Shown here: piece after piece, positions 6,925 through 7,167 of the stretch
Numbering within the stretch: the first letter of the stretch is position 1
Layout: the number at the start of each line of letters is the position of its first letter
Virus record (IMG/VR): IMGVR_UViG_2526164651_000005
Direction: 5' to 3' (one strand)
Origin: a virus
Taxonomy: Duplodnaviria > Heunggongvirae > Uroviricota > Caudoviricetes
DNA: 16,069 nt
Position numbers and translations under genes: made by a program
Notes under the pieces: generated by a model
The model's input: only the letters and a program-made list of their open reading frames with translations
Database searches by the model: none
What the model was told of the DNA's origin: nothing

Positions 6925-6953
6925 TATTTGTTCGTGGTTGTTCCACGTTGTTC
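6925..6953. repeat. Three TTGTTC units at exact 10-bp phasing (TTGTTCGTGG / TTGTTCCACG / TTGTTCACTG) preceded by TATTTGTTC; candidate protein-binding array upstream of the capsid operon
   Basis: Read directly: TTGTTC at 6928, 6938 and 6948. A 15-bp stretch (TTGTTCCACGTTGTT) is repeated exactly at 14467..14481. Confidence 0.45.
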
Positions 6954-7029
6954 ACTGAGCGGATCGGCATATTTTACCCGAACTGAATCATGATTATTCT
7001 CGCCCGTGGTGCCAGGACGCTGGGGCCAC

Positions 7030-7167
7030 TTTCCCGCCTGTTAATGTGCTCGCCAATATTCATTACCAGGCGGGAAAACGATCGGTGCGATTACTGATTT
7101 CCTTATGAAAAACGGTTGAGTGTTTGCCGCGTCCTGGAGTTCCTTACTTAACCCCAGGACTTTTTTT
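7030..7167 (+). promoter_or_regulatory. Structured leader of the capsid operon: perfect 11-bp long-range stem (7030..7040 with 7067..7077) and a terminator-like hairpin (GTCCTGG 7131..7137 with CCAGGAC 7154..7160) followed by T7 abutting the capsid ATG
   Basis: Inverted repeats read from the sequence. The T7 run occupies the position where a Shine-Dalgarno would be expected. A second CCAGGAC copy at 7012..7018 could pair alternatively with 7131..7137. Confidence 0.4.

Follow-up and report, generated by a model that had tools for sequence, protein, structure and literature searches.

A candidate AlpA-responsive promoter and a structured leader RNA precede the capsid operon of a capsid-forming phage satellite

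The window analysed here is the whole 16,069-nucleotide (nt) stretch of DNA held as IMG/VR record IMGVR_UViG_2526164651_000005. Judged by its gene set, it is a capsid-forming phage-inducible chromosomal island (cf-PICI) of the EcCIEDL933/OI-51 type, adjoining phoQ. Satellites of this kind make heads of their own and need helper phages for the tails only; the timing of their capsid production was not described in the literature searched. Positions 6925-7167, directly 5' of the major capsid gene, are a genuine control region and not a chance pattern, and its phased boxes and leader helices are conserved features of cf-PICIs. We read the stretch as the control region of the morphogenesis operon, combining boxes for the island activator AlpA, a weak promoter, a leader RNA that opens with two helices (HP1 and S2) and a switchable terminator, a composite reading to which we assign a probability of about one half. 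The candidate AlpA operator, consisting of phased TTGTTC hexamers, would link excision, auto-activation of alpA and capsid expression. The structured leader RNA is widespread, absent from Rfam and strongly covarying, and a lineage-specific hairpin at its end may control the major capsid gene at two levels, transcription and translation.

The sequence suggests a promoter with a 162-nt structured leader of the capsid/packaging operon, not a bare promoter, and more precisely an activator-dependent late promoter with a possibly attenuating leader. An initial annotation of the region had proposed a regulated control point, acting by antitermination or a structure-gated start, in place of a simple promoter; that there is more than a simple promoter is supported, and antitermination is not supported, no antiterminator protein or RNA having been identified in the island. 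To gather homologous loci, one genome per species and IMG/VR were searched with the capsid protein and with a degenerate HP1 pattern, and annotated Escherichia coli, Klebsiella and other records were added. Their leaders are of several types. Type A, that of the window, occurs in E. coli and Shigella and is nearly invariant, the L002 type is found in other E. coli islands, and type B in Klebsiella, Citrobacter, Erwinia, Rosenbergiella and many uncultured contigs; short and other leader types are without the structured part. Among 5,426 complete E. coli genomes, 360 carry the window's leader region with a coverage of at least 80% and an identity of 95-99%, and these include O157:H7 strains. In a phage collection the leader was found in three records only, one of which is an induced 16.5-kb element with the cf-PICI layout.

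Phased boxes and the putative promoter

Three TTGTTC boxes occupy 6928-6933, 6938-6943 and 6948-6953 on the plus strand, in the exact 10-bp phase first noticed in the initial annotation, and lie at about -79 to -54 relative to the predicted RNA start. An exact hexamer triple at 10/10 spacing arose in none of 400 first-order Markov shuffles of the window. The array, which we propose to be an AlpA operator, is extended upstream by a further motif, TTGTAAAT (box 0; 6917-6924, plus strand), which has a single exact match in the window and whose TTGTAA is located 87-89 nt (98 in one exception) upstream of HP1 in relatives carrying that hairpin. TTGTAA and the three TTGTTC hexamers thus make four boxes with 11/10/10-bp spacing across 6917-6953. 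Related arrays stand at two other places in the window. Four TTGTT(C/G) boxes (TTGTTC, TTGTTC, TTGTTG and TTGTTG) are phased at 10 bp on the minus strand of the int-alpA spacer (1287-1322), and TTGTGT/TTGTTC/TTGTTT boxes on the plus strand (14455-14481) adjoin the att repeat CGGTGTAGTTAATGGTGTAGT; the latter share the 15-mer TTGTTCCACGTTGTT with 6938-6952.

Phased boxes recur in locus L001, from an O157:H7 strain, and in the island of L003, which occupies another integration site and has five phased positions between int and alpA, four of them GAACAA, as well as TTGTTC boxes upstream of int. The AlpA proteins of the window, L001 and L003 are 92-98% identical, and all three islands carry the triple TTGTTC at the capsid promoter. 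The triple is also conserved in L002, which has the same AlpA allele, and L003 keeps it despite a non-type-A leader and a capsid identity of 74%, a figure taken from the near-identical L002 capsid. In the Klebsiella element L004, with an AlpA only 47% identical, the int-alpA spacer and the capsid upstream region contain TGTTCAT-type arrays. The boxes are therefore direct repeats in helical phase that occur at the att arm and at promoters and track the AlpA allele, as an operator array would, and since islands that keep the AlpA allele also keep TTGTTC, the boxes probably serve as operators for AlpA. This is consistent with what is established for the protein, which activates PICI genes and its own promoter, PalpA, is sufficient for excision and replication (PMC6092414), and is required for cf-PICI induction and transfer (PMC6092414; 10.1101/2022.09.08.507074). 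Neither of these two papers defines an AlpA operator.

Upstream of the array, the preceding gene block ends in an intrinsic terminator (6887-6912, plus strand), a scanner match to AGCCGGAGCAATCCGGCT (6887-6904) plus a T-run, which is predicted to insulate the capsid promoter. In many type-B islands an intrinsic terminator is found directly upstream of the core promoter, whereas the insulating terminator of the window is farther upstream. An identical AGCCGGAGCAATCCGGCT hairpin lies at 6524-6541, and the two copies flank the open reading frame (ORF) at 6565-6867, an arrangement that suggests a duplicated terminator or gene cassette.

Between the boxes and the leader, conservation points to a sigma-70 promoter on the plus strand, TTTACC (6973-6978)-N16-TATTCT (6995-7000), with a weak -35 hexamer. 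When 43 distinct leaders are anchored on HP1, a TAT..T hexamer is always found 5 nt before that hairpin, with a T-rich hexamer 16 bp further upstream; the -35 element is TTTACC in the window, TTTACA in L002, TTTACT in L095 and TTTTTA or TTTTCT elsewhere. The window's version agrees with the consensus at 8 of 12 positions, which is below the cut-off of the consensus scanner. An alternative promoter, with the third TTGTTC as -35 and TATTTT (6970) as -10, was judged less likely, its -10 not being conserved in position-equivalent relatives.

Other phased arrays are present in these islands. In the accessory region before the right end of the window (14052-14090, plus strand), three GTGACA copies stand in exact 10-bp phase with a degenerate copy (CGTGACGG) in front; this array is unrelated to the TTGTTC array and equally non-random, with 0 of 400 shuffles giving its like. 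L004 (11700-11970 and 7120-7330) carries dense arrays of iterons, TGTTCACC/GGTGAACA, downstream of its primase gene, and the stretch from int to the AlpA-like gene holds several different arrays in 10-bp phase, comprising three to four copies of CATTCAACAG, three of ACGACACGTA and five of TGTTCATC. Upstream of int, L001 (240-500) and L255 (1932-2330) share phased GTTTCA/GTTCAT boxes and the motif CGGTGTAGT-N5-GGTGTAGT; since these two islands sit at different chromosomal sites, the motifs must be part of the island arm, as opposed to the host flank.

The structured leader RNA

RNA folding, suggested with the initial annotation as a check on its proposal, showed the leader (6960-7175) to be more stable than shuffles, with z = -3.9. 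Independent folds of 31 leaders share a common plan, in which HP1 is followed, after 0-3 nt, by S2, then by a pyrimidine-rich single strand and finally by a last hairpin that ends 3-7 nt before the AUG. HP1 (7006-7029, plus strand), recognized from folds and conservation, is the 5'-terminal hairpin GUGGU-G-CCAG[GACG]CUGG-G-GCCAC, the GACG loop of which is invariant. Of 156 loci, 152 have one or the other of two HP1 alleles. The alleles differ on both sides of three of the four inner pairs, with pairing kept (CCAG/CUGG versus CUCA/UGAG); the outer pair, G-C in the window, is A-U in type B, and some type-A copies have G-U. A scan with a degenerate HP1 pattern for additional alleles returned only the two known ones and rare variants, and added no covariation.

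S2 (7030-7077, plus strand) is a long helix abutting HP1. Its core is the perfect 11-bp stem 7030-7040/7067-7077 that had been picked out from the sequence at the outset, and this stem extends to 17-nt arms (7030-7046/7061-7077) that are 94% complementary. Alignment of all type-B leaders with MAFFT and RNAalifold recovered HP1 only, as S2 was misaligned, whereas a covariance model built from 12 type-B leaders, which found 34 leaders and was used to align them, recovered S2 as well. In the 34-leader alignment, two-sided changes are seen at 7 of the 10 S2 pairs, which are 97.9% paired. Across the structure as a whole, 96% of cells are paired, none of 500 shuffles reached the observed covariation, and the signal is lost when partners are slid by 1-3 columns. 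G-U pairs are present in both S2 and HP1, and the interior of S2 is not conserved. The HP1 and S2 of the window itself are aligned by this model only with filters off (E = 0.0013). S2 is thus a conserved, covarying RNA helix of homologous islands. At the gathering threshold Rfam 15 contained no match to the window or to L004, and at E up to 10 it returned chance-level matches only; the leader is an undescribed RNA motif, a conserved folded leader for which Rfam 15 holds no family.

The remainder of the leader is more variable in kind. A small hairpin at 7080-7099 (plus strand), present in minimum-free-energy and prefix folds, is specific to the EcCIEDL933-type leader. No conserved leader peptide was found, neither the ATG in the type-B -10 region nor the MKNG mini-ORF at 7105 being conserved; the latter, ATG AAA AAC GGT TGA, spans 7105-7119. 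A closing helix from the 10-bp inverted repeat 6992-7001/7173-7182 was rejected, about half of the type-A variants being mismatched there (GATTATTCTC changed to GAGTATTCTC). Two further observations, a direct repeat (GATTTCCTTA/GAGTTCCTTA) with copies 41 nt apart in the stretches 7096-7119 and 7137-7146 of the plus strand and the matching by the covariance model of CCUUAUG at 7101-7107 to the type-B capsid start, hint that the type-A leader originated by partial duplication or insertion.

The hairpin at the capsid start and its possible switching

The last hairpin of the window (7131-7141/7150-7160, plus strand) is terminator-like and is followed by seven U residues (7161-7167). It consists of an uninterrupted 7-bp GUCCUGG/CCAGGAC stem (7131-7137/7154-7160) with five G-C pairs, extended by 3 bp across one mismatch, and encloses a loop of 8 nt if the extension is counted and of 16 nt otherwise; its energy is -12.7 kcal/mol alone and -14.1 kcal/mol for 7129-7167 with the tail. 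A G+C-rich hairpin with a U-tract of at least 5 directly after it is the signature of an intrinsic terminator. The hairpin and T-run were correctly described in the initial annotation, but not the one-base gap said to separate them from the gene, for the T-run abuts the capsid ATG at 7168-7170 with zero bases between. Nor is it the case that a Shine-Dalgarno sequence is lacking, as had been stated; a well-placed Shine-Dalgarno-like AGGA lies at 7156-7159, 8 nt from the ATG and within the 3' arm of the hairpin. The capsid genes of type-B and short-type islands have no canonical Shine-Dalgarno.

Hairpin and T-run are present in all 19 distinct type-A leaders, and the 6-bp GUCCUG/CAGGAC core is unchanged in 17 of these; among the core-intact leaders the seventh pair is once G-U and once a mismatch. 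The 5' arm lies within a block conserved in all leader types (GGUUUCACGUC in type B and GUUUGCCGCGUCC in the window). L002 has the 5' arm CACGUCCUG, with AACCAAUACGAGAAAACCUUC in the place of the type-A 3' arm and U-run, and in type B another hairpin, UGGUUUC/GAAACCA, forms there and has no U-tract after it. Leaders of type B and of the L002 type thus show at this position either another hairpin or no hairpin at all, and in neither case a U-tract. These comparisons suggest that the 5' arm is ancestral and that the 3' arm CCAGGAC and the T-run are derived and confined to type A; as far as the sampled leaders indicate, the terminator-like hairpin that abuts the start codon arose within, and is confined to, one lineage, that of E. 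coli and Shigella. The covariation that was to be looked for in homologous islands is seen in S2 and not in the terminator-like hairpin, which is restricted to type A, and the absence from homologous leaders that the initial annotation named as grounds for abandoning its view is encountered for the hairpin with its T-run but not for S2.

The 5' arm has a second potential partner. The segment GCGUCCUGG (7129-7137, plus strand), which holds an invariant CGUC, is complementary to 7012-7020 in HP1, where a second CCAGGAC (7012-7018) occurs. The pairing of this copy with 7131-7137, already put forward as an alternative structure, extends to a perfect 9-bp helix (7012-7020/7129-7137) that is mutually exclusive with the terminator; a complement of at least 9 nt was found in 9 of 5,000 dinucleotide shuffles of the upstream leader. 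The homologous complement is 8 nt in type B (AGACGUGA/UCACGUCU; 64 of 5,000 shuffles) and 7 nt in L002 (238 of 5,000). The GACG/CGUC core is invariant across types, and two flanking positions change together with complementarity kept, in two to three lineages; within type A neither strand varies. Prefix folds ending at 7140-7150 favour the long-range helix, and in the complete RNA HP1 plus terminator is favoured over it by about 13 kcal/mol. In type A the long-range helix would block the terminator and free the AGGA, which is classical attenuator/sequestor logic, and on these folding models a switch between HP1 and the terminator is plausible.

We infer AlpA binding, the RNA start, termination, and both the existence and the trigger of the switch, and on that footing the following course of events can be proposed. 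The terminator at 6887-6912 would halt transcription from upstream. AlpA, a small excisionase-like activator made only on helper-phage induction, would then occupy the boxes at 6917-6953 and, from about -90 to -54, activate TTTACC-N16-TATTCT, giving RNA from about 7006. S2 may act as a clamp that places HP1 beside the sequence before the start codon. By default the hairpin and U7 would terminate part of the transcripts, and in read-through mRNA the hairpin would bury the AGGA ribosome site; if the apical segment of HP1, CCAGGACGC, paired instead with the hairpin's 5' arm, GCGUCCUGG, neither termination nor sequestration would take place. A bolder proposal, which we consider improbable, is that HP1, S2 and CGUC together form an undescribed class of cis-regulatory RNA in capsid-forming satellites, a bistable device in which the invariant 5' hairpin and the distal CGUC swap partners. 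A helper-phage factor, a satellite factor or RNA polymerase would flip the leader and so license capsid synthesis, and in the E. coli lineage the module would have become a terminator and a gate over the ribosome site in one. If so, the bistable leader and the AlpA boxes would place the timing of the satellite capsid under two keys, a DNA activator and an RNA switch.

Several points weigh against the composite reading of promoter, leader and switchable terminator. At its upstream end, the boxes could bind the arm-binding domain of the integrase or another protein instead of AlpA, the proposed promoter at 6973-7000 was not picked up by the consensus scan, and an RNA start at about 7006 is deduced from conservation. 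Short-type relatives do without the structured leader, which therefore is not essential for expression. The covariation of HP1 and of the long-range pairing derives from two or three lineages, with two common HP1 alleles, and the alternative pairing has a negligible equilibrium probability. Termination at U7 is likewise a prediction, and the consensus terminator scanner did not call the hairpin at 7131-7160, presumably because the 7-bp stem encloses 16 nt, above the loop limit of 8. Two type-A variants (L114 and L117) weaken the stem, no compensatory change was found among the 19 type-A leaders, which are too similar to show any, and all non-E. coli-type leaders lack the hairpin with U-tract. 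Selection on the hairpin is thus not demonstrable, given that it is lineage-specific and shows no compensatory change within type A.

Among other explanations, the least unlikely is that there is no switch, the hairpin and U7 being a recently acquired, constitutive leaky terminator or mRNA structure that only damps capsid expression, and the complementarity to HP1 a by-product of the 3' arm having arisen as a copy of CCAGGAC. This would fit the lineage-specific distribution of the hairpin and T-run, with an ancestral 5' arm and derived 3' arm and T-run, the equilibrium that strongly favours HP1 plus terminator, and the fact that other cf-PICIs manage without hairpin and T-run. The 9-bp complement, however, exceeds the 7-nt repeat and is rare by chance, and complements of 7-8 nt in terminator-less leaders point to an older interaction between HP1 and CGUC. 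At the DNA level, it is unlikely that the TTGTTC boxes are not AlpA sites at all; they would then be arm-type sites of the integrase, the chief rival to AlpA, or be bound by some other protein of island or host, or merely be T-tracts in phase that give the DNA a curvature. The integrase does carry the arm-binding domain PF13356, and its arm sites would also be expected adjacent to the att repeat, where boxes are found; against this, integrase sites have no obvious role before alpA and the capsid operon, the known activator of PalpA is AlpA (PMC6092414), and the L003 island has the same AlpA allele and the same boxes despite its different integration site.

The remaining alternatives assign other functions to the leader. 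That the 162-nt RNA ending at U7 is itself the product, a trans-acting small RNA (sRNA), seems quite unlikely. There is a precedent in StxS, an sRNA from the terminated late-promoter leader of a Shiga toxin (Stx) phage (PMC7547250), and a strong 5' hairpin with a 3' hairpin and U-tail is how stable sRNAs of the Hfq type are typically built; but relatives are without the 3' terminator, a target for such an sRNA was not identified, and in the Hfq cross-linking and immunoprecipitation (CLIP) paper on enterohaemorrhagic E. coli and the supplements searched no OI-51 sRNA appears, nor is a known sRNA at the locus recorded there or in the O-island review. It is very unlikely that HP1 and S2 are a put-like cis RNA with which polymerase reads through the leader terminator and the post-capsid hairpin along the 6.5-kb operon. 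The two adjacent stem-loops (72 nt) at the extreme 5' end, with terminator-like hairpins at 7131-7167 and 8335-8356 downstream, recall putL of phage HK022, which has about 70 nt and two stems at the transcript 5' end (PMC9378689). The leader model has no match in the HK022 immunity region, however; covariance model R1 run on HK022 27600-33000 gave a best E of 1.3. Moreover, the post-capsid hairpin is retained in short-type islands, which have neither HP1 nor S2, conservation is absent from the S2 interior, and type-B leaders have no leader terminator. Least probable of all is that HP1 acts as DNA, as an operator whose imperfect palindrome (+1 to +24) a dimeric repressor would bind. Its extreme sequence conservation, with two alleles over 156 loci, and its overlap with the predicted start would suit an operator, whereas the asymmetry of its halves, the G-U variant (GTGG...CCAT) in type A, its direct abutment on an RNA helix rich in G-U pairs, and the fact that no repressor is known in Gram-negative PICIs (PMC6092414) would not.

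The proposed control region can be compared with several characterized systems. Like attenuators (trp/pyr-type leaders and riboswitch platforms), the island has a leader between promoter and first gene that ends in a hairpin and U-tract, with an upstream segment (7012-7020) able to pair with the 5' arm of the terminator, and its hairpin also covers the ribosome-binding site. Unlike them, it has no identified leader peptide, ligand pocket or sensing factor, its competing segment is locked in a stable 5' hairpin, and its terminator occurs in one lineage only. As in lambda-type late control (PR'-tR' and Q), a late/morphogenesis operon appears to lie behind a short terminated leader, of a predicted 162 nt in the island compared with 194 nt for the lambda 6S RNA leader, and activation, as with AlpA of Pseudomonas aeruginosa, depends on a small phage-type regulator. 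The island differs from both in lacking a Q-like protein, no member of the Q family being found among the ORFs scanned, and in that its boxes lie far upstream. P. aeruginosa AlpA, which is 21Q-like (PMC9371919), was rejected as a precedent for antitermination by AlpA; it has at least 142 residues and shares only the name with the island AlpA, a PF05930 protein of 62 amino acids (aa) for which a PDB sequence search matched only 8c3t.

Another likeness is to recombination directionality factors of the Cox/Xis/Vis type (P2 Cox boxes and CP4-57 AlpA), with which the island has in common short repeats about one helical turn apart at the att arm and at promoters, and a small excisionase-like factor that activates transcription. 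P2 Cox is a directionality factor that doubles as a transcription factor. In contrast to those systems, the array is a candidate AlpA operator only; such boxes at a capsid operon promoter were not described in the literature searched. With HK022 put RNA the leader shares its two stems, a length of about 70 nt and a place at the 5' end of a long operon of phage type, but the covariance model picks up no similarity in sequence or structure, and relatives devoid of the module keep the downstream hairpin. Finally, HP1 starts at or within 2 nt of the predicted 5' end, as do the stabilizing stem-loops of the ompA type, yet it is invariant in sequence, loop included, which a generic stabilizer would not need.

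Island layout and neighbouring genes

The gene set of the window matches that of EcCIEDL933/OI-51, namely int, alpA, a D5-type primase, HK97 capsid, protease, portal, HNH, TerS and TerL. The integrase gene, with its PF13356 domain, is at 1-1230, alpA, the product of which is the candidate binder of the boxes, at 1605-1793 (plus strand), and the primase gene at 3692-5443. The packaging operon opens with the HK97-type major capsid gene (7168-8325, plus strand; PF05065, E = 4.9e-61), 3' of which follow the protease, portal, head-completion and connector genes, the HNH gene, TerS and TerL. The terminator-like hairpin after the capsid gene (8335-8356, plus strand) is conserved in nearly all related islands; it has the form GGGGC-loop-GCCCC with a T-run, and a clear GGAG site for the protease gene comes after it.

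L001 has the same gene layout and lies between roxA and phoQ, and its size and flanking genes indicate that it is the island of O157:H7 strains known as OI-51. Deletion of OI-51 lowered LEE (locus of enterocyte effacement) expression and reduced excretion from sheep (PMC3378721). The DUF4222 ORF upstream of the primase gene (3396-3695, plus strand; 99 aa) encodes, judged from size and position, an apparent counterpart of RgdR (ECs1581), a reported activator of LEE1 and repressor of motility in O157:H7 (PMC3378721). RgdR was ruled out as the gene adjoining the leader, since it has 99 aa and lies between z1841 and z1842, and by this size and position appears to be the product of this DUF4222 ORF.

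Closer to the leader, a PerC-like ORF (6340-6501, plus strand) encodes 53 aa in the window as against 90-93 aa in L001 and L002; its match is restricted to the C-terminal part of the Pfam model, and the gene may be truncated. Within 6565-6867 (plus strand) lies an ORF of unknown function that belongs to phrog_1957, a small protein with the C-terminal motif ...EQ.D.LI..L... encoded directly 5' of the capsid leader in many cf-PICIs. It also stands upstream of the leader in L006, L009, L068, L075, L079 and L095, the leader types of which differ. In L003, a ProQ/FinO-family RNA-binding protein is encoded (5209-5739) two genes 5' of the structured capsid leader.

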